Shown: positions 23,527 through 49,042 of the stretch, piece after piece | Layout: each line of letters opens with the position of its first letter | Numbering within the stretch: position 1 is the stretch's first letter | Sequence record: MT701590.1 | Reading direction: 5' to 3' (one strand) | DNA from: Klebsiella phage Miami | DNA: 64,000 nucleotides | Translations under genes and position numbers: made by a program | The notes under the pieces: model-generated | What the model was told of the DNA's origin: nothing | The model's database searches: none | Seen by the model: only the letters and a program-made list of their open reading frames with translations

Positions 23527-24792
23527 ATGAGTAAATTGTTTCTGGATCTGCTGGCTCGTCAGGGCAACGAAAACCTGGAAATCGAACTGGGTAATGGCGA
23601 TACCGCTGTAATCGTTCCTGAGTCGGCCGAAGAAATCGCTGAAATGGCTGCTGAAAACGTCCTCGCTGAAACTTCCGAAGAACTGGAAGAACACGCCGAT
23701 GACGTTGAAGACCTGTGCGACAAAGTTGAAGAACTGGAAGAGCAGGTTGAAGAACTGCAAGAAGTCGTTGAAGGCGCCGAAGCCCTCCTGCAACCGGGTA
23801 CCCAGTGGAACCCTGCTGCATTCGCCCTGCTGTACGCCCGCGGTGAAAAACTGAACGCCAAAATGAGCGATACCGCTGTCCCGGTTATGGGTGCGGAATC
23901 TCTGGCTGACGCGACTACCGCCGAACTGTCTGCTCGTGAAGGCCTGGAAGCTATGGGCGCCACCGTGAAAAAATGGGGCTCTCAGGCGATCGCTTTCATC
24001 AAGAAAATCTGGGATAGCCTGATCGCTTTCATCAAAGGCCTGTTCTCCAAAGCCACCGCGGTTAAGAACAAAGCGAAAGCTGTTGCCGCTCGCCTGGAAA
24101 AAACCGAAAAACTGAAAGAAACCATCAAGCTGGGCAAATGGAACGCGTTTGTCGGTGTTGGCGAAGGTCAGCCTAAATCTGCAACCGGTCTGTCCACTCT
24201 GATCGGCGCTGCCGGTAAAGTGGTAGCGGGTTCTGAAGCTCTGCTGTCTTCTCCGGGTAACGCCGCTGCGCTGGCAGGTCCGGTTAAAGAACTGAGCTCC
24301 GCAGCAGCTGGCCTGGACTCTGTTTTCGGCCCGGCTAAGAAAGCTGGCGGCGACAAAGCCGTTGCCGCTCACCAGTGGCGTGGTCTGACCATCGCGGTCG
24401 GTTATTACGCTGGTAAAGTCGAAACCTTCGAAGATGTTGCGAAAGCCGCTAAAGCCATCCGCATCTCCTGGAAAGTTTCCGGCGGTAAAACCTCTGGCGA
24501 ACACAAAGTCACCGACGGCAAAGACGCGCTGAAAAAATACATCAGCGACGCCAACGCTCTGGTTGACTCCATCGCTTCTTCTAAAGTTGAAGCGCAGTAT
24601 GGCGCGGCTAAACGCGATCGTATCATCGGCCTGCTGAAAGCAGCTGATACCAAAGACGGCGAAGACGTGGGTAAAGCAGTTAACGCAGTGAAAGCTGCTC
24701 AGACCGCTCTGTCCTCTGTAACGACCTCTGCGACCCGTCTGGGCCTGGCTATCGCTAACGGCGAACTCGACTACGTACGTGCTTGCCTGTAA
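23527..24792 (+). CDS. abundant Ala/Glu-rich virion-type protein (internal head or scaffold-like candidate)
   Basis: Extreme high-expression codon bias (CTG, GGT, GCT, AAA, GAA), unlike neighbouring genes. Acidic Glu-rich N-terminal third, Ala-rich remainder. Terminator immediately downstream. Confidence 0.5.
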   Translation: MSKLFLDLLARQGNENLEIELGNGDTAVIVPESAEEIAEMAAENVLAETSEELEEHADDVEDLCDKVEELEEQVEELQEVVEGAEALLQPGTQWNPAAFALLYARGEKLNAKMSDTAVPVMGAESLADATTAELSAREGLEAMGATVKKWGSQAIAFIKKIWDSLIAFIKGLFSKATAVKNKAKAVAARLEKTEKLKETIKLGKWNAFVGVGEGQPKSATGLSTLIGAAGKVVAGSEALLSSPGNAAALAGPVKELSSAAAGLDSVFGPAKKAGGDKAVAAHQWRGLTIAVGYYAGKVETFEDVAKAAKAIRISWKVSGGKTSGEHKVTDGKDALKKYISDANALVDSIASSKVEAQYGAAKRDRIIGLLKAADTKDGEDVGKAVNAVKAAQTALSSVTTSATRLGLAIANGELDYVRACL

Positions 24793-33376: not shown

Positions 33377-33463
33377 AATTCAACATGGAGTTTTTTATGG
33401 CACTATATAACCGCAGTGTATGAAAAACAAAATGTTATTTTTAATTTAATAGAGGAAATCATC

Positions 33464-33922
33464 ATGAAACGTTTTATCTCTGCGGCTATTCTTTCCGTTA
33501 TTGCTATGAGCGCTACCGCAACTGAAAATACCAACATCTGGGGCTGCGTCACAAATACAGGCAAAGTCGCTAGAGTCGACTTGGTAGAAGGAGCGGGTGG
33601 CGTTCAGGCGGTCTACACGTTCGGTAAGGCCGGGAGCAATCCAGAGCTCTCCGTTGTCAAGAAACCTTCTGACGTTAAGTATACTGAGAAAGAGGCTTAC
33701 GCCAACGGTATCCTGCAAACCACGTATTACCAGCTGACTTTTAATAACGGACAGTTCAGTTATATCGCTGAACAGTTTAACAAGATCGGGCGTCTTTATG
33801 TGCTCAAGAACGATAAAGTTATTTCGACCATTGAGTGCGAAGACATTATCGATGCCGGTGTTCTCGACAGCGAAAACATGATCAAAATCTTTCCTTACCA
33901 TGAAAAGGTAAAGGATGAATAA
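33464..33922 (+). CDS. secreted (Sec signal peptide) protein of unknown function
   Basis: ATG 33464 with GAGGAAA RBS. N-terminus 'MKRFISAAILSVIAMSATA|TEN' is a classic signal peptide with an AxA cleavage site. Two Cys in the mature part. Own AT-rich upstream region and own terminator. Confidence 0.55.
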   Translation: MKRFISAAILSVIAMSATATENTNIWGCVTNTGKVARVDLVEGAGGVQAVYTFGKAGSNPELSVVKKPSDVKYTEKEAYANGILQTTYYQLTFNNGQFSYIAEQFNKIGRLYVLKNDKVISTIECEDIIDAGVLDSENMIKIFPYHEKVKDE

Positions 33923-33924
33923 AC

Positions 33925-33978
33925 CTCCTACCTCCACCCATAAGGGTGGAGGTAGGGCAACCTAATTTATTTTTTTTT
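33925..33978. terminator. bidirectional terminator
   Basis: CCTCCTACCTCCACCC-ataa-GGGTGGAGGTAGG hairpin, then an 11-T run. Between convergent genes. Confidence 0.6.
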
Positions 33979-38422: not shown

Positions 38423-38546
38423 TACTTCGTCTTCTTAAATTTTTTAAGGACTATATTATCTCTGGGTAAAGGGTTGGTATAAGGGACCGCGCATCCCATA
38501 CCAGATGAAGCTCTAGTCTAAAAATAAACCTTAAGGAAATTAACAA

Positions 38547-39569
38547 ATGAGTCTTTCGTCTTACGGCACGCAAAATGCCTTATCTTATCAGTTATTTAAT
38601 AACACGAGCAAGGAGCTCTTGCTACGTAATAACGGCGGAATGAACAATATTATATCCGCGTGTCCTAAAAGCGGATATAATAACACTATTGTTCTGCGGG
38701 TTACGCTTACTGTACATAATGTTCACAATGTATTATTTGATTTGGAAGGCATGACCAACGCTTTAGATAGGGAGATCGCAACTGAATTCATCACTCAGTT
38801 AAATGCCCGTAAGAAGAACGACTTTGTTTATTTAGAAATTAACGACACCATTTGTATGACACACACAGTCACCCTAGGGCAACGTCACGCGAGTGGATTA
38901 AAAAATGAAATTAAAAGTGACCTGCTCAATTTCACTTTAAGTCAAGAGGTCAATAAGTATAAAGACAGGTTCGTTGGTAAGACCGCAACCGCAATCACCC
39001 AAGAGATAAAAAATGATTTAACTGAAGAAGAATCAGAAAACCTCATTGTGTGTATGAGAGTTAATGATCCCCTTTCCATTGTAAATAATCTCTGGACCAC
39101 AGCGGGCGGTGAAGCAGTTTTAATACCGAAAACTACCAATGAAGACGAACCAGCGGGCCTGTATATTGTGAAAGGTCATAACGCTTATAACCGTGGAAGT
39201 GAATATCATGATATCGCTAAGTGCAGTAAGGAATTCCTTAACGCACTAGGGGTTTATCACAGTAAACACGAAGCCGATATTGGCGGTAACAGTAAATTGT
39301 TACACGACCTTACATCTAAAGTATCAGAAATGAAGAAATCCACTGAGAAAGCTCAACGGGAACTAAACACCGCAGAAGTTAAAGCAACCACTCTAAATAA
39401 TCGGTTGGAGCATGCAAAGATGGTGCAACTGTTCGATAAAGAACGGGCTAAGTTCAAGGAAGATATATCCAAAAGCGCGAATACCGGTAGTGGATGGGGG
39501 GATGCATTTAAATCTGCAGGGGGGTTCTTGTCGACGCTGTTCTCGATATTTAAACTCCTTCCCATTTAA
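38547..39569 (+). CDS. hypothetical AT-rich protein with C-terminal coiled coil and hydrophobic tail
   Basis: 340-aa ORF, visibly AT-richer than its flanks, with its own upstream region. C-terminus '..GGFLSTLFSIFKLLPI'. Confidence 0.45.
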   Translation: MSLSSYGTQNALSYQLFNNTSKELLLRNNGGMNNIISACPKSGYNNTIVLRVTLTVHNVHNVLFDLEGMTNALDREIATEFITQLNARKKNDFVYLEINDTICMTHTVTLGQRHASGLKNEIKSDLLNFTLSQEVNKYKDRFVGKTATAITQEIKNDLTEEESENLIVCMRVNDPLSIVNNLWTTAGGEAVLIPKTTNEDEPAGLYIVKGHNAYNRGSEYHDIAKCSKEFLNALGVYHSKHEADIGGNSKLLHDLTSKVSEMKKSTEKAQRELNTAEVKATTLNNRLEHAKMVQLFDKERAKFKEDISKSANTGSGWGDAFKSAGGFLSTLFSIFKLLPI

Positions 39570-39580
39570 CAAGGTGCGAC

Positions 39581-41251
39581 ATGGATCCTAAGTTACTGAA
39601 AGCGGTATCGGCTACGATGCCTAAGTTTAATGAAACGATAGCTTCAGGTTTCCATCAACGAGAATTTGAGCAAATACATAAACGTTATGAATATCTTTTA
39701 AGAATGACGTTTGAACCCATTGAAAAGAAAGGAGTATGGTTTGTTGGCGTCAGGTCGGTACGACCTCATGAAATGTATAACGTCATCGCGAAGAACACAC
39801 AGCAGAAAACCTTTGAAACAAACAAAGAAAGTCTTTATCCGGTTAAACTCGTCTTTAAATACGGGATGGATAAAAATACTGCCAGGGAGATGGATCCTGT
39901 TTACGTACTCCTTCCGTTCTGTGATCGGTATGGGGATGTTTGGATCAGGGGAAGTCAATACAGCTTACAGATCGTCCTCGCTGACCGAGGGTTGAGCGTC
40001 ACTAAAGACGATCAGATCTTCGTAAGGCTCCTGGGATATAAATTCAAAGTAGGAACTGAGCAATATGAATACACTCAGATCCACAATGAAATAAATCCTG
40101 TCAGGGAAACTAACCTTCCTATTAACCTTCCGGCTAACCGCTTCTACGTGGCCAGTGAAGCACGTCGTCCAAACCCAACTAAAACCCCCACACCTTTATT
40201 GGCGTGGTATGTGTTTGCGGAGTATGGTTTTAGCGAAACCATGCGTAAGTTTGGGGAATGCGATTATGCGATAGGTGATCGTGATGCGATCATTCAGCAA
40301 TATAGTGAAGATAAAGGTTGGAAGCTGTTTGGCAGTAAAGGATTGGCGATTGGCAAAAGTATCACGCCATATGTGAATTGCGGGTTAGCTATAGCGGCTA
40401 AACCATTAAACGAAAAACGAAGAGGGGAAATACCTAACGTTGCACAACAGTATATTGCGGCATTGCTTTATCTGTGTGATGTTGGCGGAGAATTTATTGA
40501 TTTGGATAAACTCGACGATAAATATTTTTGGCGTATGATGGTCGGACACGCCAGTATTAAAGCCGGAGGAAATCTCACCCATTTGGAAAAACAGATGGCG
40601 GATCACTTCGATTCCATGAACGAAGGTTTAGACCAAACAAGTATCCAACGATTCGCTGAGCAACGAATTGTGGTTAAAGATCGTTATGAATTGTTTAATT
40701 ACATCATAGCGAACCGGGCTGAAATCGTTAAGACTTCCGATAAAGCCAATATGTTACATAAAGAAATTAGTTCTAGTGAGTTCACATTAGACAAACTGAT
40801 TACTGCGGCTAACCGCTTTAAACACGACGTCAAAAACACAACAGAACTCAACTATGAACGTGTTAAGTCATTCATGTCATCTCATTTCAAATTACGCGAT
40901 ATCGAATCGGCTGCTTGGGAATCTAACATGATCCAAGAAGCTACGCCGACAGATTGCCCTATCGCCGATTATGGCTTTGGGGTGATGTCTCAGGCGAAAG
41001 TATTCGGTCCTCGTAATAACGGGAGAAACAGTGACTTTAACCCCAACGATCCCGCTAACTGCATACATGGCTCTGTACCTTTTGTGATGAGTTTCCAACG
41101 GGTAACTAAACCCGACCCAAACGCTTGCGGATTCTTAGCCCCCTGCGTGTATTTGATCAACGACAAATACTTGGGACTCAGACCAGAAGATGTGGAACTG
41201 TACGAAGCCACTGTGAGCAGACTTACTAAGTCTGAGGTTAAAATTAAATGA
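39581..41251 (+). CDS. hypothetical protein
   Basis: 556-aa ORF. Confidence 0.5.
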   Translation: MDPKLLKAVSATMPKFNETIASGFHQREFEQIHKRYEYLLRMTFEPIEKKGVWFVGVRSVRPHEMYNVIAKNTQQKTFETNKESLYPVKLVFKYGMDKNTAREMDPVYVLLPFCDRYGDVWIRGSQYSLQIVLADRGLSVTKDDQIFVRLLGYKFKVGTEQYEYTQIHNEINPVRETNLPINLPANRFYVASEARRPNPTKTPTPLLAWYVFAEYGFSETMRKFGECDYAIGDRDAIIQQYSEDKGWKLFGSKGLAIGKSITPYVNCGLAIAAKPLNEKRRGEIPNVAQQYIAALLYLCDVGGEFIDLDKLDDKYFWRMMVGHASIKAGGNLTHLEKQMADHFDSMNEGLDQTSIQRFAEQRIVVKDRYELFNYIIANRAEIVKTSDKANMLHKEISSSEFTLDKLITAANRFKHDVKNTTELNYERVKSFMSSHFKLRDIESAAWESNMIQEATPTDCPIADYGFGVMSQAKVFGPRNNGRNSDFNPNDPANCIHGSVPFVMSFQRVTKPDPNACGFLAPCVYLINDKYLGLRPEDVELYEATVSRLTKSEVKIK

Positions 41252-43641
41252 GCAGCATTCGCCCTACCAATCGCGGTAATGGAGTGAGTATTCCTAACGA
41301 AGATCCGAGCATGGGTAATGGTTTCGGTTCACTGGCTACAGGAATGCAACAAAATAGCATGTACGGTCAACCGCAACAAATGTTTGATCCGTCTGCGATG
41401 ATGAAAATGATTTCAACAGGAGGTATGAGCAATAACCCAGCCTCCGGCGGTTGGGATTGGTCGAACGTAGATAGGCCGAAAAACCCTAATGCTGCATTCT
41501 TGGATGAGTTTTTAGGGCATCAGGAAGATGAACTCGAGCACGCGTTGAAAATGGAAGCGCAAGCTTACGCAACTAAATTCGCAGCGCGTATTATCAACGA
41601 CATTAAAACGAGAAACACAAGCGGGTATTATAAGTTCTTCCTTAACGCGTATAATATCTTTGCACTGGTCCCCGACGCCCCTCCTATGATGTGTCCTATC
41701 AGGGGGCGGTTCATAGAGGTTATCAAGAATACTCAGGCGGCGCAGTTGCGTATTGCGGGCCGTGGTGTGACATTCGGTGGTCGTGATTTCGCTTTACAGA
41801 TCATGGCGCAGAATCCACTTGATCAACGTCTGGTAGAAAACCTCTTCAGTACTGGTATTGCGAACGCCATGTTTTTAGAAATGGTGGATTGGTTTGCTAA
41901 AACGGCTGATGGCAGAGACGCATATAGCAAGCTAACTAATGAACTTAAGTTGACATTGACTAAATTACCTAAGTTCATTACTTACGCAGCGGAATGCTTC
42001 CAGTTCTTCAATATGGATAGCCCGTATAATGACCTGAGTCCAGTCCCTAAAACTTCCCCAAACCCAGATCAGAACATGAGTCAGTATGTGGTCAGATCGA
42101 CGTCAGGGAGTGGAGCGGAGTGGTTAGGGTTCCAGCATTCTACAGAATCTCAACAGCAGAAGGAGATCAGGGAGATCAACGAATGGGTAGCGAATAATCT
42201 TCGCCAACGCCAAGAGTACCAATACCAGCAAGCCCAGCAACAAACTCCCGACGCGGCATATTGGTGTGGTCAGCAGACTCAGCAACAGTATAGTTTTGGG
42301 GAACTTCATACTAAACGTGTTGATTTCGAAAACGTTAATCCCGATAACGTGGCGGATTTCTCTTTAGAGAACTTCAAACGTATCCCGGGGACAGATAAAT
42401 ACGTTGTCGATGAAACCACTTGGAGTTATTTCTCCAAGGCGTTCAAACGAGCCTATCGTCCCTATGGTGAACTTTTTGCCGGAACATACGGAATACGAGT
42501 CGTCAAGATCAATTTCGAGCTCAACGACGGTTGGGTGGACAATGTTCTGTTTATAGAAGGAGTGACTCCAGCCATGGCTTTAGCCAACCCAGCGATGCTA
42601 CTTCCGCATCTCGAGACTGACCAGCAAGGCAACGTGGTCATCGTCGATGAAGTGGTCCTACCAAAAGAGAAGGACGAAGAAACTGGCATTGAAATGGTTC
42701 CGTTACAGAAAGTTAAAGTGATGGAACACGCCCCGACAGCGGTTGTTGTTCCCGAGGTTGTCACAGGTGATAGCTTTGGAAATATCGAGACCGTAATCGA
42801 CACCATGTTCGATACCGTTAAACCGTCAACATCCGGATTGTTCGGTGTTGCCATCCCGGTAGAGAACTGGAAACGTTTCTTCGTAGAAGACAGCACAATC
42901 GTAGAAGAAATCTACCTTCGTTTACCTTGGCTGGTTAAAGGTAACGGCGGCGGTACTCCACCTACGTTCTTTGATTTCGTTTCAGAGATACAAAAGACGA
43001 TGGATCATTATATCGGTTGTGATGAACTTCGTGGATTTGTTGAAACTCATATCACTGACACGGTTAACCGTTGGTTGGTTGATACGAGAGGTTACGGCGG
43101 CAATCGTGACGATCAATATCGCTTCAGAATTAATGGGATCTTCAGCAATCTCAAGAATCTGATTAATCACTTAGAGAAAAACGATCCCGACACGTTCAGT
43201 GTTTTGATCGATCCTAAGCGGTTTAAGCGACTCTTTACTAAGTGTAAACTGTTTGCACCGCGTGAGACACGTTCAGCGCTCTTGAATGGCGCTCTGCCGA
43301 GTTCTCCAACTCAGGCTGCGATAGCTAAGGAAAATGATAAGAAAGCTATGGTCGTCCTTACAGACGTCGTAGTGACCCGTATCGGCAATATCCTCGCACC
43401 TAATACACAAAAGACCGTTATCAACGTAAAACGTTCAGCGTTCCCAGAGATGTTCTCTTTAATCGAACGTTCATTTGGGAAAACCTCCGATCTGTTACCA
43501 GAAGGTGTTGAACAGGTACTGTCTTTTGTCAGTGACGATAGTCTTTGGACTTTCAACACATCAGGATTTGATTCCAACGTCGCAGTTATGCGTAAGGTAC
43601 CCAGAACCCAAGGCATGCTTAATTTTAAATTAATTGAATAA
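41248..43641 (+). CDS. large hypothetical virion-type protein with Q/N/G-rich N-terminus
   Basis: 797 aa, ATGA-coupled to the upstream gene. N-terminal ~90 aa low-complexity (GNG, QQ, MM, SGG). Confidence 0.5.
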   Translation: MSSIRPTNRGNGVSIPNEDPSMGNGFGSLATGMQQNSMYGQPQQMFDPSAMMKMISTGGMSNNPASGGWDWSNVDRPKNPNAAFLDEFLGHQEDELEHALKMEAQAYATKFAARIINDIKTRNTSGYYKFFLNAYNIFALVPDAPPMMCPIRGRFIEVIKNTQAAQLRIAGRGVTFGGRDFALQIMAQNPLDQRLVENLFSTGIANAMFLEMVDWFAKTADGRDAYSKLTNELKLTLTKLPKFITYAAECFQFFNMDSPYNDLSPVPKTSPNPDQNMSQYVVRSTSGSGAEWLGFQHSTESQQQKEIREINEWVANNLRQRQEYQYQQAQQQTPDAAYWCGQQTQQQYSFGELHTKRVDFENVNPDNVADFSLENFKRIPGTDKYVVDETTWSYFSKAFKRAYRPYGELFAGTYGIRVVKINFELNDGWVDNVLFIEGVTPAMALANPAMLLPHLETDQQGNVVIVDEVVLPKEKDEETGIEMVPLQKVKVMEHAPTAVVVPEVVTGDSFGNIETVIDTMFDTVKPSTSGLFGVAIPVENWKRFFVEDSTIVEEIYLRLPWLVKGNGGGTPPTFFDFVSEIQKTMDHYIGCDELRGFVETHITDTVNRWLVDTRGYGGNRDDQYRFRINGIFSNLKNLINHLEKNDPDTFSVLIDPKRFKRLFTKCKLFAPRETRSALLNGALPSSPTQAAIAKENDKKAMVVLTDVVVTRIGNILAPNTQKTVINVKRSAFPEMFSLIERSFGKTSDLLPEGVEQVLSFVSDDSLWTFNTSGFDSNVAVMRKVPRTQGMLNFKLIE

Positions 43642-43749
43642 CCCCACCATCCTAGAACCATTTAATCGATTAAGTAGTTACTATCGGATATCCTTCCTTA
43701 ACGGGAGGGTATCCCTTAATAACCATTTCCCACAAAAAAGGAATACGAA

Positions 43750-44385
43750 ATGAATCGTCCAATTTTTAAAATTAGTCAGCACGCGCAGTTGTCGATCCCG
43801 GCCCTCATCGATGTTACAGAAAATGAAGCGGAATGCTCGTCACTTGTTTACGGCCTCCATCCTTCCATGACCGGGGTATTCTCTGAACGCCAGAAGGATT
43901 CAATGGCAGAGAGTCTTTACCTAATGGGTCAGTACGCCGAAATCATTCCCAGGAATAAGCCGGAGTGTACGATTGATTATCATCCCATCACTAACGAGCA
44001 TTACCTTAAATCGTTTAAACATTATTACGAAGCATGGGTTGCTTTGGGTAGAGATGAAGTGGTGATGCAGGGAGCTACTGTTAGGGTTTCGTCGTTTTTA
44101 TTATTAAGGACTATGTTCAATGGGGTCATAGGAATTCTACCTTATCTCGACCCCAAAGGACATCGGATGCAAGCAAAGGAATACGCTAAATTAGACGATT
44201 TGGTTAAACTGACCTACGGCGTGCCCGCTGGGTCATTCTCGGCGACCCCCGATTACCAGGTTGTTCCTAAAATAGAGGTGCGGGAACAGATCGTGATGAG
44301 TTTTACTGACAAATACGGTAATGCAATCACCATCACCGGGAACGACAGAGAAAAGATGATCGAACAGATAGAAAAATTAAAGTAA
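43750..44385 (+). CDS. hypothetical protein
   Basis: 211-aa ORF, followed by a terminator. Confidence 0.45.
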   Translation: MNRPIFKISQHAQLSIPALIDVTENEAECSSLVYGLHPSMTGVFSERQKDSMAESLYLMGQYAEIIPRNKPECTIDYHPITNEHYLKSFKHYYEAWVALGRDEVVMQGATVRVSSFLLLRTMFNGVIGILPYLDPKGHRMQAKEYAKLDDLVKLTYGVPAGSFSATPDYQVVPKIEVREQIVMSFTDKYGNAITITGNDREKMIEQIEKLK

Positions 44386-44390
44386 TCGTC

Positions 44391-44423
44391 TTCCCTACCA
44401 CTCCTTAACTGGGGTGGTAGGGA
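44391..44423 (+). terminator. rho-independent terminator
   Basis: CCCTACCAC-tccttaact-GTGGTAGGG hairpin. Confidence 0.45.
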
Positions 44424-44527
44424 GTAAGAAAGCTTTAATTTTTTAACATGAAGATTTTTATAAGTCGATATCATTCAGGTGTATAAACAACAAGTATTTT
44501 AATTCTTATTCACTAAAGAGGTCCAAA

Positions 44528-45100
44528 ATGGAAATTCGTAAAGATATGATCAATGAAATCGCTGCTCGTATCATCTCTGGTTGCAACGACGTGGAAGCCA
44601 GTGTCCGCGAAAAGCTGCTGCGTAATTTGGTTAATGGTGAGATCTGGCAGTTCGAGCTCAATGAAACTGAGCAAGCGGAACTGATCGCGATCGTAAGCAA
44701 AGAGTTCGGTATTTCCGATCTGGTCTACGTCGAACCGCAGAAAAACATTTCTGAAGAAGATGTCGCCAAAGTCGCCGCCAGTGTTAACGGGCATGTCGAA
44801 CACAAATATCTGAATCTGCGAAATGCGATGGCGGTCGGTGCAGTACTCGGTGCTGGCGCGGCCATCTTAAAAGAAGGTGCGAACGCAATTAATGCCGGCG
44901 CTGGTGTGGTCGGCGCTGCTGTTTCTTACGGCGTGGGTTATCTGGCTGACAAGAAACAGATCGGTATGGGTAATCAGTACGCTGATGTCGCGGCAGGTAT
45001 TGTTGCCGGTGGCGTTATCGGTGGCGGCGCTGTATTTGGCGCGGGCTTTGTCGCCAAACGTTTCTTCAGCAATGAAGAAGTTGAAGTTGTTGCAGAGTAA
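44528..45100 (+). CDS. glycine-zipper membrane protein, paralog 1
   Basis: AAGAGG RBS. Hydrophilic N-terminal 100 aa, then two GxxxG/AxxxG-rich hydrophobic segments 'AVGAVLGAGAAIL..GAGVVGAAVSYGVGYLADKK' and 'VAAGIVAGGVIGGGAVFGAGFV'. Highly expressed codon usage. Confidence 0.55.
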   Translation: MEIRKDMINEIAARIISGCNDVEASVREKLLRNLVNGEIWQFELNETEQAELIAIVSKEFGISDLVYVEPQKNISEEDVAKVAASVNGHVEHKYLNLRNAMAVGAVLGAGAAILKEGANAINAGAGVVGAAVSYGVGYLADKKQIGMGNQYADVAAGIVAGGVIGGGAVFGAGFVAKRFFSNEEVEVVAE

Positions 45101-45163
45101 TAAACGCATCTGAAATATCCGATGCATCTTAAATTAAACTATCAATAGTAAGGAAATACGATC

Positions 45164-45556
45164 ATGAAAAAAGAAAACACTGAACTGACTGGCGCTGAAC
45201 TCGACGAAGCTAAAGCAATGCTGGCTGTTGATGCAGAAACTTCCCTGTTCGACGACATCTGTGAAAAACTCGGTGGCTACGTAGCTACCGACAAACAGAA
45301 AAGCCACGTGAAAGCCGCAGTGATCGGTGGTGTTATCGGCACCGCTCTGAGCATGGCGACCAAACCGTCGGTCGGGACACTGGTCGGTGGCGTGGTTGGT
45401 ACCGCAGGCGGAGCTTATATCGGTAGCCGTCTCGCCGATGATCTGAGCGATCGTTTCATTGACAAACTACTCACCGGTGACATCGGCTTCGTGTGTAGCG
45501 CTATCGGCGCATCCATCGGCGGGGCATTAACCCCGAGCAAAGTCGAAGCGGACTAA
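45164..45556 (+). CDS. glycine-zipper membrane protein, paralog 2
   Basis: 'AAVIGGVIGTALSMATKPSVGTLVGGVVGTAGGAYIGSRLADD', and 'GFVCSAIGASIGGAL'. Confidence 0.55.
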   Translation: MKKENTELTGAELDEAKAMLAVDAETSLFDDICEKLGGYVATDKQKSHVKAAVIGGVIGTALSMATKPSVGTLVGGVVGTAGGAYIGSRLADDLSDRFIDKLLTGDIGFVCSAIGASIGGALTPSKVEAD

Positions 45557-45624
45557 ATCATCCAGTTCGTTCCACTATCGTTAAATTTTAGGCAACTCAA
45601 CATCAAAACGTAAGAGGTAATATC

Positions 45625-46020
45625 ATGGATATGGCAAACAAACCTGCAGTTAACAAAGCTACCTTGTCAGAAGAAGAAATTCTGAAAATGCTGGCTGGTC
45701 ACAAATCCACCGATGCCAACTATCGCGTTGGTCGAATCGCTGGTGTGCTGGGCGCAGTCGTCGGCGGCGCACATCGCACTATCACTCAAGGCATCAAACC
45801 ATCAACTGTCGTCGGCGCAGTCGTCGGCGGATTAGTTGGATACAAAACCGGCAAGCTTGCGGATGGCTTCAGTGGCCTGACGGGAACGCATTCCCCGATC
45901 GCAGATGTCGGCGCATTCACGGCAGGTTACGGCGTGACTCTGGGCATGAGCGCCCTGGCGGCCACCTTCGATCAGTACATCACACCGCTGTACGAATCAG
46001 AAGAAGAAACCGAAGAATAA
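45625..46020 (+). CDS. glycine-zipper membrane protein, paralog 3
   Basis: 'IAGVLGAVVGGAHRTITQGIKPSTVVGAVVGGLVGYKTGKLADGF'. Shares the KPS..VGG.VG.Y.G..LAD core with paralog 2. Confidence 0.55.
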   Translation: MDMANKPAVNKATLSEEEILKMLAGHKSTDANYRVGRIAGVLGAVVGGAHRTITQGIKPSTVVGAVVGGLVGYKTGKLADGFSGLTGTHSPIADVGAFTAGYGVTLGMSALAATFDQYITPLYESEEETEE

Positions 46021-46026
46021 GAAAGT

Positions 46027-46075
46027 TAACTCCTCTACCCTTACGGGTAGAGGAGTTACTTAATTACTTATTTTT
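46027..46075. terminator. bidirectional terminator
   Basis: TAACTCCTCTACCC-ttac-GGGTAGAGGAGTTA, then a T7 run. Between convergent genes. Confidence 0.6.
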
Positions 46076-49042
46076 TTACTCTGGAAGGGTGTCATCAACT
46101 TGGAAGTCGTCTTTCTTATTGCCGTCTTCTTCTGTCTCTGTTTCTTCCTCGGTTTGGTTTTCTTCTTCGGAAGTGCCTGTTCCCGTCTCTTCTTCCTCAG
46201 TCGTTCCCCCTTCCCCAGGCAAATCTTCCTCTATAGAGAAATCGTCGTCTGTCTGAGTTCCCTCTTCAGGGGCACCCTCATCATCAGGTGGGGCGCCGAA
46301 CTCATCCGCCGGAGGCTGTTCCGCAGGCATGATCTTTTCCAAACGTTTAGCCAGTCGATCAGTCTCTTTATTCCAGGCCTTCATGAACTGTTCTAAGAAC
46401 ATTCCACTGTTGTCCACGTACTGAGATATGTTGTGGATTAACGAATAGACCCCGCCCTCTTTACCCTTGTTACCGATAAGATCGAACGGCATAGGGAGGT
46501 TGAATCGATCATAAAGTTCAATTAGATAAGTACTGCGAATAATGGATTTGACTTTCTCAATATCCAACCCGCCGCTACCATCAGTTTTGTTCATGATCTG
46601 TTCAATCAGACCGGAAGTCCCTGACATTTCAACCCACGAGTTTACAAACTGATTGACCGTATCGATTTTATCTTTCAGTTTGGTTACTGATTCCTGAGTA
46701 GCCGGAGTCGGTAAGGTCACGGTGAGGTTGTTGATAAAGTCAGCCAGGATAACTTCAACGATGTGCTCGTTAGTTCCCTCTATCTCTTCGCCGTTATCAG
46801 GTTTCCACAACGATTTGTTCTCGTTAATGGTGTCGACCAAACGATTCAACATAACCTGGTTAACCAACATATCCTTACGTTCGATCTCAGCAACAAAGTC
46901 GCCCAATACCTTCTGCCAGATCAATGTTTGGTTGCGGAGCATTTCCTGCTCGGCCAATGCTTCGACCTGGAAGTTGGTTCCTTCTTCTTTATCGTCCAAC
47001 CAAGTACGTTGGAGTTTAAAAGTGGAGGCGATGTTGTTGAGGAGGTTCTGTCTGGAGGTTTCGTCGATAGCTTTGAAGTTACCGCGTTCAACCGGTTCCA
47101 GAGTTATCTTGGGTCCGACCATCCACGGGTTACCGTTACTATTAACCTCAACGATCAGGGATTGAGTCTTCATTGCTTCAACAATGTCGGGCACTGAAAC
47201 AGTACCGGAGTTTACCACGTTGTGAAGCGTTGGGTTTACCCTGAAGAACTGCGCCCTGGCCGTAGCAATCGTACCATCCGGATCAACGTCGTCTTCTTCC
47301 AGATCAACCACTAAACGCTGACGGGTTTGAGCCTGATCCAAGTTAGCCAGAATGTCAGCAGTATCCAATGCTGCCAGACGACCGATATGGAGTTTAGCCT
47401 GGTTGGTTAAAGAAGAACCAATACCAAAGCTATTGTAGTCAAACGCGACGTAGGTGAAGTACTCTGCCGGAATGTAAAGAACCCGAACACCCTGTTGCTT
47501 GAAAGAACGAGCCAGGAAGATCTTCAGGTTAGCTTCAACCAATTCAACAGAAATATTTTTCCCACTCACCCCGGAAGCAATAGCCTGGATAAGGGATTTT
47601 TCTATTTGATCCTTCGATAACAGGGTGAATTCTGACATATCGAAGTCACAATCGGCACCTTGCTGAACTTTCTTCAGGTTAGCGATAAGTGCGTTGGTTC
47701 CACCTGTTTTATTAGGCGTGTCGATCTTATCTTTCTGACCCTTAGAAGACTGATAGAAGTTAAAGTCCCTTGTACTTTTTAAGAACTCTCCGTTAGACGG
47801 ATCAAGCAAAGCGAACCCACCAATGAGCTTAGTCCGATCACCTTCCATATGGACGGGAATAAAGGCTTCACTCGGAATATGGTACCGTAACGGAATTCCA
47901 TAAACTGAGGTGTCGTAAACCCCTGGGCTGCGGACACTGATAGTTTGACGATGCGGGTAACTACGATGCGGATAAAACTCATTCTGAAGAACTTCCAGTT
48001 GGCTTTCCGACAAGATCTGAGTTTTAGTATCGGCGTTAGGCGTCCCGTTCTTACGTTTAGCCTTAGAGTCGTCAGGCTCCTTATTCGACTTCTTAGGATC
48101 TTCCTTTTTCTTATCCTTGGTCGCCGTAGTCTCTTCTTCGCCTTCCTCACCTTTTTTCTCTAGGCGAGATTTAATAAGGGAAGCGAGATCTTCTGTCCCA
48201 CCGATGTCATTGACGATCTTCTTCGTTAAAACCTGATTCACGGAACGAAGAGCCAGAACCGCCGGGTTGTCAGTCAAGGTAATCCCGAACCCTTCCCCTT
48301 CATCATTCTCGATCAATTCGAATTCAGTTGAGGTATCTGGGGTGGAGTGACTAAACAAAGCCTCTAGCCCATGAACGACGTTATTGAGCTGTTTAGGACC
48401 CCTCACCAATCCTTTGTTGATGGCAAGAAACTTGCCGTCCACATTTTTAAATTGCTTCTCAATCTCTGGTTTTATCTGAGTGTTAATGTAACTTTCGTTA
48501 CCTGTCACTCCGTCTTCCCCAAACTGCTGACCGTTGATAAGGTGATCCAGCGCAGGTCTAGAGATGTTCAAAAGCACGTAGGATCCTGTGCCGAATAACC
48601 CATCTTTGATGAACTCCGGTAACAGCTTCTCGATTTTATAGTCGCTGGTATAGTAGGTTTCCGTCTTACGGAGCAACTCTTCATGCAGCTTAGTATTTTT
48701 AAATTGAGACCGCAAAGTATCGTGAGTAAGGATCCTTTCCTGTAATCCGTTCGGGTAGAGGAGAAGCGTCTTCCAGATTAATTCCGCACGCGAAACATAA
48801 GGTGTGATTTCCCTTAAGTCAGTTGCCGCATTGATATTGTTGGCAATGATATCGCTGATCTTTTTTAATTTGGAAGGTTGGACTTTACGTTCTTTCTCAT
48901 CTGTATTTCTGGTATGATCTCTCTCGTCCCGAACGAGGTTCCGAACGACGCTTTTTAACGAGGGGCTGATATTGTTTAAATTACCCCTGAGTTTGGTTTG
49001 ATCGAGGTAATCATATCCTCGGGTTGAACGCGTTCTATTCAT
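46076..49042 (-). CDS. large hypothetical virion-type protein with poly-acidic C-terminal tail
   Basis: 988 aa. Last ~90 aa almost entirely D/E/T/G. Internal Lys/Glu-rich linker. Confidence 0.5.
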   Translation of the reverse strand: MNRTRSTRGYDYLDQTKLRGNLNNISPSLKSVVRNLVRDERDHTRNTDEKERKVQPSKLKKISDIIANNINAATDLREITPYVSRAELIWKTLLLYPNGLQERILTHDTLRSQFKNTKLHEELLRKTETYYTSDYKIEKLLPEFIKDGLFGTGSYVLLNISRPALDHLINGQQFGEDGVTGNESYINTQIKPEIEKQFKNVDGKFLAINKGLVRGPKQLNNVVHGLEALFSHSTPDTSTEFELIENDEGEGFGITLTDNPAVLALRSVNQVLTKKIVNDIGGTEDLASLIKSRLEKKGEEGEEETTATKDKKKEDPKKSNKEPDDSKAKRKNGTPNADTKTQILSESQLEVLQNEFYPHRSYPHRQTISVRSPGVYDTSVYGIPLRYHIPSEAFIPVHMEGDRTKLIGGFALLDPSNGEFLKSTRDFNFYQSSKGQKDKIDTPNKTGGTNALIANLKKVQQGADCDFDMSEFTLLSKDQIEKSLIQAIASGVSGKNISVELVEANLKIFLARSFKQQGVRVLYIPAEYFTYVAFDYNSFGIGSSLTNQAKLHIGRLAALDTADILANLDQAQTRQRLVVDLEEDDVDPDGTIATARAQFFRVNPTLHNVVNSGTVSVPDIVEAMKTQSLIVEVNSNGNPWMVGPKITLEPVERGNFKAIDETSRQNLLNNIASTFKLQRTWLDDKEEGTNFQVEALAEQEMLRNQTLIWQKVLGDFVAEIERKDMLVNQVMLNRLVDTINENKSLWKPDNGEEIEGTNEHIVEVILADFINNLTVTLPTPATQESVTKLKDKIDTVNQFVNSWVEMSGTSGLIEQIMNKTDGSGGLDIEKVKSIIRSTYLIELYDRFNLPMPFDLIGNKGKEGGVYSLIHNISQYVDNSGMFLEQFMKAWNKETDRLAKRLEKIMPAEQPPADEFGAPPDDEGAPEEGTQTDDDFSIEEDLPGEGGTTEEEETGTGTSEEENQTEEETETEEDGNKKDDFQVDDTLPE

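Follow-up and report, generated by a model that had tools for sequence, protein, structure and literature searches.

Beside the portal-class gene of Klebsiella phage Miami (MT701590.1) lies an operon of three genes with small glycine-rich products and its own promoter and terminators, which raises the question of what such a cassette contributes to infection. The phage is a phiKZ-like, nucleus-forming Klebsiella jumbo phage with a genome of ~252 kb, and the window analysed is a stretch of 64,000 nucleotides from it. A first-pass annotation described three consecutive small genes of 190, 130 and 131 aa, each with a good ribosome binding site. Both points hold, with all ORFs on the + strand: p1 (44528-45100, 190 aa), p2 (45164-45556, 130 aa) and p3 (45625-46020, 131 aa) are preceded by the Shine-Dalgarno-like sequences AGAGG, AAGGA and AGAGG, respectively. 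Comparison with sister phages reveals purifying selection on p1-p3 (dN/dS 0.00-0.28 overall, with 0.00-0.04 for p1, 0.09-0.28 for p2 and 0.06-0.13 for p3), and for this reason they are regarded as real genes.

The cassette is bordered by a gp124-like gene, an upstream 211-aa ORF and the portal-class gene (46076-49042, - strand), which is convergent with it. The portal-class product matches phrog_3004 (E 1.7e-211) and is 41-46% identical to its counterparts in EL, RisingSun and VP4B, and the gene order of phiKZ gp118-gp125 and gp129 is matched here. The 211-aa neighbour was considered as a homolog of phiKZ gp125, which was unsupported on comparison. Whole-genome comparisons used the 289 genes of sister phage YC1 (96% identical), across which p1-p3 are the sole family members and in which chimallin was found (phrog_4795, 2e-100).

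Both hairpin terminators proposed to bracket the genes fold strongly. The upstream hairpin (44391-44424, + strand; first placed at 44391-44423) closes the 211-aa gene with a 14-bp stem and a 6-nt loop, at -27.5 kcal/mol (z -5.1) with none of 200 shuffles folding equally well, and a hairpin of different sequence occupies the same spot in the related locus L010. The T-run after it comes only past a gap. The downstream bidirectional terminator (46027-46075, both strands) consists of a stem at 46027-46058 and a T-rich tail, and separates the cassette from the portal-class gene. Its stem folds at ~-27 kcal/mol on either strand (z -6.5 on +, -6.9 on -), was scored as terminator-like on the - strand by the scan, and is kept in L010, RisingSun and Yubaba; VP4B gp151 likewise has a hairpin and T-run 3' of it. 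Inside the cassette neither an internal promoter nor a significant hairpin was found and, together with the flanking hairpins, this indicates that the cassette is its own transcription unit.

The three genes had been called paralogous on first inspection, a relationship which BLASTP of single sequences detects only weakly (E 8e-4 and 0.005 for two pairs, no significance for the third) but which is clear between ortholog-group profiles. The latter align by hhalign at E 4.2e-9, 7.3e-10 and 3e-7 over 89-111 colinear columns, values that the glycine-rich composition may inflate. By sequence comparison, p1-p3 are thus shown to be distant, ancient paralogs. The family is small, with a profile search returning 11 matches among 1.84 billion representative proteins and no homolog outside small phage-type proteins of this group; phiKZ and EL were examined directly at the syntenic locus. 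Database copies are all annotated 'hypothetical protein'. The claim that the set is not a described module also stands, as no match was found in PHROG, Pfam at threshold, NCBIfam, the PADLOC anti-phage defence profiles (E<=1) or the PDB by sequence-profile search. Searching IMG/VR with the p1 profile gave no match, and tblastn of p3 against a phage database gave nothing beyond five sister phages.

Among relatives, the family is confined to one spot beside the portal gene, where it occurs in 0-3 copies. L010 carries the triplet in the same order with the same neighbours, including a p1 ortholog (P0018) of 44% identity, and the p3 ortholog elsewhere is RisingSun gp87. RisingSun and Yubaba have one copy each at this position, VP4B has two, and L009 has none. 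The last of these was the one examined of two loci found in IMG/VR with the portal-class protein. As copy number varies from 0 to 3 at the same locus, the function appears to be accessory, while retention of the p1-p2-p3 order at ~40% identity suggests that the three products are non-redundant partners.

Each protein begins with a hydrophilic, acidic N-terminus and no signal peptide, as was originally described, with the first hydrophobic run starting at residue 38-100. The number of glycine-zipper segments requires revision, as there are not one or two but three uncharged Gly/Ala-rich runs of 12-23 residues in each protein. In p1, a helical acidic N-terminal domain of ~95 aa precedes runs at 100-114, 123-140 and 154-176 and an acidic tail. 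The runs of p2 are at 51-66, 68-88 and 107-125, and those of p3 at 38-49, 59-73 and 95-115, the latter protein ending in the tail EEETEE. In each protein a gap of 1-9 residues lies between two neighbouring uncharged runs, the spacing [GAS]xxx[GAS]xxx[GAS] is matched 9-14 times per protein, and both termini are acidic with a net charge of -4 to -9. The predicted architecture is a helix-loop-helix of two short Gly/Ala-zipper helices, then a longer Gly/Ala-rich helix, the third, and finally the acidic tail. AF2 monomer models are all-helical for p1 and p3 but of low confidence (pLDDT 52 and only 38, respectively). The shared motif reported after the zipper is present, with G-x-(K/R)-L-A-D following the second run in p1-p3. 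It loosens to G-x-[KRG]-[LVIMC]-[AS]-[DE] in relatives (L010, P0016, RisingSun gp87) and is missing from the VP4B and Yubaba members.

The resemblance to glycine-zipper domains is partial. Of the two parts of this assignment, the helix-loop-helix with small-xxx-small spacing is present but no gathering score is reached in Pfam. The best scores belong to p2 and are still sub-threshold, at 23.7 bits (E 4e-5) for Gly-zipper_YMGG (PF13441, cut-off 28.9) and 22.2 bits for Gly-zipper_Omp (PF13488, cut-off 25). p3 scores 17.5 bits against Rick_17kDa_Anti (PF05433, cut-off 24.2), and p1 matches none of the Pfam glycine-zipper families. In NCBIfam, p2 reaches 19.1 bits against the glycine-zipper part of YiaD, for which the cut-off is 175. 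Across the family, PF13441, PF13488 and PF05433 are matched at E<=0.01 by 2, 2 and 1 of 19 members, and any contact with a glycine-zipper Pfam profile involves 2-4 of the 19, all sub-threshold. For class II bacteriocins (PF10439), where the cut-off is 27.1, the scores were 14.6 and 14.1 bits, and the cassette proteins have long acidic N-termini without a leader.

That the products are membrane proteins had been stated with a certainty that the hydrophobicity data do not bear out. Hessa free energies, calculated as a simple 19-residue sum rather than with the full predictor, range from +2.5 to +8.8 kcal/mol, with best values of +2.5 (p1), +5.5 (p2) and +3.7 (p3), whereas a true transmembrane peptide of 41 aa from the same phage gives -2.8. 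Classical transmembrane helices would call for longer and more strongly hydrophobic segments than those of p1-p3, whose binding to a membrane is plausible but no more than that.

The timing of expression is suggested by the promoter. A sigma70-like TTATAA-18-TATAAA had been proposed, and its letters are present, but it is no better a sigma70 match than chance: the site was absent from the list produced by a scan, which found 4 sites against 3.4 expected, and sigma70 recognition does not depend on the positions that are conserved (TCGATAT, GTG). It overlaps a putative phage-specific promoter of the chimallivirus 'early' class (44456-44487, + strand; TTTTATAAGTCGATATCATTCAGGTGTATAAA) within a conserved block at ~44436-44495. 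By a by-eye count from the alignment, the core promoter block is ~88% conserved with L010, compared to 56-60% for coding DNA. The element is the top match in the 64-kb window, at 20.3 bits, for a matrix drawn from other genera only and built without this phage's own sites. It is intergenic, correctly oriented, placed after a terminator and kept at orthologous sites. The consensus and its early assignment are published for phiKZ, EL, OBP and N1M2 (PMC7058600, PMC7598289), and 44456-44487 aligns to the consensus of phiKZ (TATATTAC), EL (WTTTYAAACCTACATTATY) and OBP and N1M2 (TTTCARRYAKATATTATYWAAGTGWA). The cassette differs in having TTATAAG rather than TTTCARR as its -35-like part, and its core is GATATCAT.

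The same motif lies 5' of chimallin in YC1, VP4B and RisingSun, representing three genera, and 5' of glycine-zipper homologs in five lineages; it precedes family members in VP4B, RisingSun and Yubaba. In YC1 there are 17 promoter sites of at least 15 bits, 16 of them intergenic and all 17 on the gene-sense strand. The class also precedes an operon holding an nvRNAP subunit, and no such motif stands 5' of the capsid or internal head genes. In phiKZ the early class is attributed to the virion RNA polymerase, and the published N1M2 promoter list places the motif upstream of ORF104, a family member. The relationship to timing is not absolute, with the same predicted motif preceding some genes annotated as virion structural in N1M2 and the promoter classes of 201phi2-1 not all cleanly matched to timing. 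Based on the motif class and its co-occurrence with chimallin and the nvRNAP operon, the cassette looks to be switched on very early in infection, together with the chimallin gene.

Other readings of the upstream region were considered. A 12-codon leader frame (ATG at 44449, TAA at 44485-44487) is intact in three copies. As a leader peptide it was rejected, since its substitutions are not third-position-biased and the ATG is missing in VP4B and RisingSun. A long form of the element at first seemed to occur in 2-4 copies, 5' of the cassette, a secreted protein, the 41-aa transmembrane peptide and chimallin. An 'envelope regulon' was discarded when a broader matrix showed a general promoter class of ~17 sites. 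As a candidate late promoter of the TATG type, ATTTTATG is found 6 times where 3.4 are expected, with one copy 5' of the capsid gene and none 5' of the cassette.

Codon usage typical of very highly expressed genes, as originally noted, is upheld in both the window and the genome. Within the window, p1-p3 come 3rd-5th of 51 genes when ranked by how closely their codons follow those of the genes for the capsid and the major internal head protein. In YC1 the cassette genes rank 4th, 9th and 12th of 289, with p2 in 4th place behind only chimallin, the major internal head protein and the capsid protein. The triplet is therefore very probably highly expressed, as judged by its codons.

Taken as a whole, these features are best explained, albeit tentatively and with rather less than even confidence, by an accessory module that is made early and works on a membrane from its cytoplasmic side, for instance to exclude superinfecting phage or to take over the envelope. 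p1-p3 would be produced in bulk in the cytoplasm minutes into infection and associate with each other via their small-residue helix faces. They would then attach to the cytoplasmic leaflet of the host inner membrane or of the early-infection vesicle, or insert shallowly in it, forming a re-entrant or oligomeric assembly and not the classical helices that Sec inserts. The envelope would thereby be altered in favour of the phage, most plausibly by superinfection exclusion or by a change in permeability or energetics during host takeover. Exclusion or membrane perturbation by p1-p3 is possible, and the specific choice of exclusion or permeability is modelled on small membrane proteins that other phages make early.

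Several features of the cassette could also describe soluble proteins, abundant early in infection, whose Gly/Ala-zipper helices form a helical bundle or a higher-order cytoplasmic assembly that associates with the growing chimallin shell, acts as a scaffold, or serves as a decoy or anti-defence factor. The positive Hessa sum of every segment, the acidic termini, the sub-threshold Pfam scores and the promoter class and codon bias shared with chimallin all fit this explanation. Conversely, three uncharged runs with small-xxx-small spacing are the signature of glycine zippers that sit in membranes, and it is membrane hairpin domains that the proteins match best in profile searches. Nor does the family look like a core shell component, as the profile search found no homologs beyond small phage-type proteins of this group. 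A soluble role is considered rather doubtful.

The genomic position of the cassette among head genes and adjoining the portal-class gene raises an alternative that is less likely still, in which the virion carries the products and ejects them. They would serve either as a filling akin to the inner body or as ejection proteins for insertion into the host membrane while DNA is delivered. Such proteins were among the candidates of the first-pass annotation. The codon bias of p1-p3 is comparable to that of the genes for the capsid and the major internal head protein, strong bias and head-region position being features also of phiKZ-type internal head proteins (PF12699), and the only other glycine-zipper-like runs in the genome are in a 2268-aa tail lysin/tape-measure-like protein. 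The N1M2 motif preceding some annotated virion genes would also fit. However, p1-p3 match neither PF12699, an internal-head PHROG nor any other head-protein profile, are much smaller than internal head proteins and differ from them in composition. The 421-aa major internal head protein gene of the window (23527-24792; phrog_5750 at 3.8e-76) has a different promoter type from the cassette. A promoter class shared with chimallin and the nvRNAP operon, published as early and unlike the upstream regions of the capsid and internal head genes, argues against both this candidate and the holin or lysis-timing function that had also been proposed. A copy number of 0-3 is unusual for structural parts, and RisingSun gp87 was not in lysate mass spectrometry, although that set is shallow and missed the portal-class homolog gp88 too.

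Small tandem paralogs with hydrophobic segments and charged C-termini might also form a lysis module, comprising a holin, antiholin, pinholin or membrane-disrupting peptide that times lysis. This is very improbable. Besides the early-class promoter, which is at odds with late expression, the segments are far less hydrophobic than the transmembrane helix that is a hallmark of holins, and PHROG and Pfam gave no holin match. Linkage to an endolysin or spanin, a further hallmark, is also lacking: the neighbours are of other kinds, and the only annotated endolysin gene of YC1 is ~107 kb away. Very high codon bias is likewise atypical for holins.

A more specific variant of the membrane reading draws on the lipid vesicle inside which nucleus-forming jumbo phages start infection. 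Made alongside chimallin, the triplet could insert from the cytoplasmic side into the bilayer of this early-infection (EPI) vesicle as a membrane-active complex, opening it for mRNA exit or rupturing it for genome hand-over to the nascent chimallin shell. We know of no protein currently assigned to either step. This more specific role is considered highly unlikely.

For the preferred accessory membrane module, the nearest structural parallel is the bacterial glycine-zipper hairpin domain (PF13488, PF13441, PF05433) of SlyB/Pcp, the 17-kDa antigen and YiaD. The two short Gly/Ala-rich helices, small-xxx-small repeats and short polar loop of this domain are also found in the cassette, and p2 and p3 align to its profiles over 35-45 residues, below the curated cut-offs. 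However, the bacterial proteins carry a signal peptide with a lipobox cysteine, and the cassette proteins have neither, so a membrane would be reached from the cytoplasmic side. The cassette proteins are also extended by one more Gly/Ala-rich helix and by acidic regions at both ends, and are phage-encoded with only 11 detectable relatives. In function, the closest parallel may be Imm and Sp of T4, early small membrane proteins of a lytic phage that block superinfection. The cassette is alike in its small products, probable early and abundant expression, hydrophobic segments and accessory variation between relatives, yet it shows no sequence similarity to such proteins in any library searched, is much less hydrophobic and comprises three paralogs.

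The finding would be a modest one should p1-p3 prove to be exclusion factors of an ordinary accessory kind. To our knowledge, almost nothing is known about phage proteins that contact membranes at the early vesicle stage, and an unannotated family with a promoter class and codon bias like those of the nuclear-shell gene is a concrete candidate for a membrane or vesicle, exclusion or envelope-takeover role. Independently of function, this Klebsiella clade joins those with the published early-promoter motif, which marks its chimallin gene and can help to assign a time of expression to further uncharacterised genes of these phages, which are relevant to therapy.

Five jumbo phages of ~252–257 kb are 95–96% identical in DNA to the cassette region: Klebsiella phages YC1, KPN8, and phiKp_32, Raoultella phage VB_ZK_P1, and 'Stenotrophomonas' phage BUCTxx100. 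All carry counterparts of p1, p2, and p3 labelled hypothetical. The convergent neighbour of the cassette (46076-49042, - strand) encodes a portal-class virion protein (phrog_3004, 1.7e-211) with 41–46% identity to its EL, RisingSun, and VP4B counterparts. Gene order 5' of the cassette tracks phiKZ gp118-gp125, with a helicase, small head protein, capsid protein, gp122-like protein, non-virion RNA polymerase (nvRNAP) subunit, and gp124-like protein. Combined with the chimallin (phage-nucleus shell) gene of YC1 (phrog_4795, 2e-100), these features indicate a nucleus-forming phiKZ-like phage, on the EL/RisingSun/Tidunavirus side of the group.

The three ORFs and ribosome-binding sites of the first-pass annotation were recovered exactly (p1, 44528-45100, 190 aa; p2, 45164-45556, 130 aa; p3, 45625-46020, 131 aa; all + strand). 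Compared with VB_ZK_P1 and YC1, dN/dS is 0.00–0.28 with synonymous changes predominant, and all three are real genes. The codon usage of highly expressed genes also described for them holds quantitatively. By a synonymous-codon log-likelihood score, which compares usage in the capsid and major internal head protein genes with that in the remaining genes, the cassette genes rank 3rd–5th of 51 in the window, and p2, p1, and p3 rank 4th, 9th, and 12th of 289 in YC1. The three genes above p2 there encode chimallin, the major internal head protein, and the capsid protein. In the window the strongest bias is that of the capsid gene and the major internal head protein gene (23527-24792; phrog_5750, 3.8e-76), the latter with a GC content of 0.55 vs. 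0.45 for the window. The proposed paralogy of p1, p2, and p3 is accepted on sequence grounds. Pairwise similarity is marginal; ortholog-group profiles align colinearly over 89–111 columns (E of 4.2e-9 for p2/p3, 7.3e-10 for p1/p3, and 3e-7 for p1/p2), scores which can be inflated by glycine-rich composition.

The flanking hairpins are both strong, with z of -5.1 upstream (44391-44424) and -6.5 and -6.9 downstream (stem 46027-46058). The sigma70 promoter read between them, TTATAA-18-TATAAA, is not significant as a sigma70 site and this reading was dropped. Despite this, the upstream region appears functional. In L010, a divergent relative from a public read assembly, the cassette proteins are 36–44% and the coding DNA 56–60% identical, and a ~55-nt block 5' of p1 is nearly unchanged (~88%, counted from the alignment). 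The same element lies 5' of the glycine-zipper genes VP4B gp150, RisingSun gp87, and Yubaba 00230, and 5' of the chimallin gene in YC1, VP4B, and RisingSun. The cassette copy (44456-44487) resembles a 'putative phage promoter' feature of the EL record and matches the published N1M2 motif TBYAWWWWWTTTCARRYAKATATTATYWAAGTGWA, which has counterparts in OBP, 201phi2-1, EL, and phiKZ (TATATTAC), the OBP version being deemed early (PMC7058600). The supplementary list of that study places a copy 5' of N1M2 ORF104 (PMC7058600), a member of the cassette protein family (P0009). According to a review (PMC7598289), motifs of this kind define early promoters, which the virion RNA polymerase must recognise.

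A matrix built from instances of the cassette promoter found 17 sites of ≥15 bits in YC1, 16 of them intergenic and all on the gene-sense strand, with shuffled genomes peaking at 13–18 bits. Many of these sites head small-gene arrays. With a matrix from other genera only, the cassette site ranks first in the 64-kb window (20.3 bits). Second is a site at 38441-38472 (19.3 bits), upstream of an operon (38547-43641) encoding a gp122-like protein, the nvRNAP subunit (phrog_2943), and a gp124-like 797-aa protein, as would be expected if the non-virion polymerase is expressed early. In the window, capsid and internal-head genes have no copy of the motif upstream. By sequence, the cassette forms a terminator-bounded operon under a predicted promoter of the published chimallivirus motif class, and would be transcribed early, together with chimallin. 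A 12-codon ATG-to-stop frame inside the promoter (44449-44487) was considered as a leader peptide and rejected, its ATG being missing in VP4B and RisingSun. Three copies retain the frame (cassette, L010, and window 33386), probably because the promoter itself is conserved.

A second strong promoter copy (33393-33424) precedes the gene of a 152-aa protein (33464-33922, + strand) with a Sec-type signal peptide (MKRFISAAILSVIAMSATA) and no match in Pfam or PHROG, followed by a hairpin terminator (33923-33978). The stretch 33393-33978 thereby resembles another self-contained promoter-gene-terminator unit, for a predicted exported protein. Outside the window, a 41-aa single-transmembrane peptide (MSIIASIAIVVIITAVVYVL...) of YC1 (OR493421, 100471-100596, - strand; L013:471-596) has a promoter copy among the best-matching and its own terminator.

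The cassette protein family is small. A search of 1.84 billion cluster representatives with its profile yields just 11 proteins at E<=1e-3, each a small phage-type protein. The cassette proteins have no Pfam match at threshold, negligible PHROG matches, and no match in NCBIfam, PADLOC, or the PDB. p2 and p3 do touch glycine-zipper profiles but score below the cut-offs, and only a few of 19 family members touch them at all. The family occupies one variable spot, between the gp124-like gene and the 3' end of the portal-class gene, with no copy in L009 (an IMG/VR relative), one each in RisingSun and Yubaba/N1M2, two in VP4B, and three in both the Klebsiella clade and L010, the latter keeping the order p1-p2-p3. 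Other genes occupy the locus in phiKZ and EL, and no members besides the three cassette genes were found in the YC1 genome. Since copy number varies from 0 to 3 at one spot, the family is accessory; it is also fast-evolving, with ~40% identity where the portal-class protein keeps 75%. Purifying selection nonetheless retains it, with the triplet kept as a set. The only other YC1 protein with several glycine-zipper-like runs is a 2268-aa protein annotated 'endolysin' (149372-156178, + strand; tail lysin or tape-measure-like), and the weak match of p2 to phrog_20938 (a 1028-position profile) may reflect segments similar to it.

The hydrophilic, acidic N-terminal part described for each protein is present, and an acidic tail closes each. 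Gly/Ala-rich zipper segments are also present, as three uncharged runs per protein rather than the one or two first reported. The first two runs span 12–21 residues, most of them too short for bilayer-spanning helices, and the third 19–23. Simple summing on the Hessa scale over 19-residue windows gives +2.5 to +8.8 kcal/mol, compared with -2.8 for a 41-aa peptide from this phage that is genuinely transmembrane. The claim that these are membrane proteins is weakened by these values and run lengths, but membrane association is plausible. A glycine-zipper hairpin that is re-entrant or oligomerises suits the pattern better than classical Sec-inserted helices, and with no signal peptide the proteins would meet any membrane on its cytoplasmic face. 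AF2 modelling of the monomers gives all-helical folds at low confidence.

These properties bear on the roles suggested by the first-pass annotation. A holin or lysis-timing function and an inner-body role are both argued against by the early promoter class, the chimallin-like codon bias, and the absence of a head-protein signature. This leaves two readings, in which these abundant early proteins would either work at a membrane or form a soluble assembly. As the set is dispensable in relatives, an accessory envelope function is favoured; superinfection exclusion, or a perturbed membrane during takeover, is proposed as its specific form with low confidence. A less probable candidate is action on the early-infection vesicle, where the patchy distribution makes a core mechanism unlikely; the searched literature reports no phage membrane protein for this vesicle, and contains no transcriptome or clean virion proteome for this clade.

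Directly 5' of the cassette, a 211-aa gene (43642-44385) evolves unusually fast: amino acid identity with L010 is 23.5%, and dN/dS among sister phages is 0.28. It is preceded by a well-conserved ~26-nt block (AACCATTTAATCGATTAAGTAGTTAC) and a hairpin, and similarity to phiKZ gp125 is undetectable though position and size are equal. The window start (15-1565) is the counterpart of one piece of the YC1 terminase large subunit, which the record annotates as intein-containing and in several pieces (85426-88972, 124202-127600). The palindrome TAAAACGTTTTA and its sub-words, including the 9-mer AACGTTTTA (24 occurrences in YC1), are among the commonest words of the whole YC1 genome (L011-L016), as are the terminator stems ACTCCTACTCCC and GGGAGTAGGAGT.
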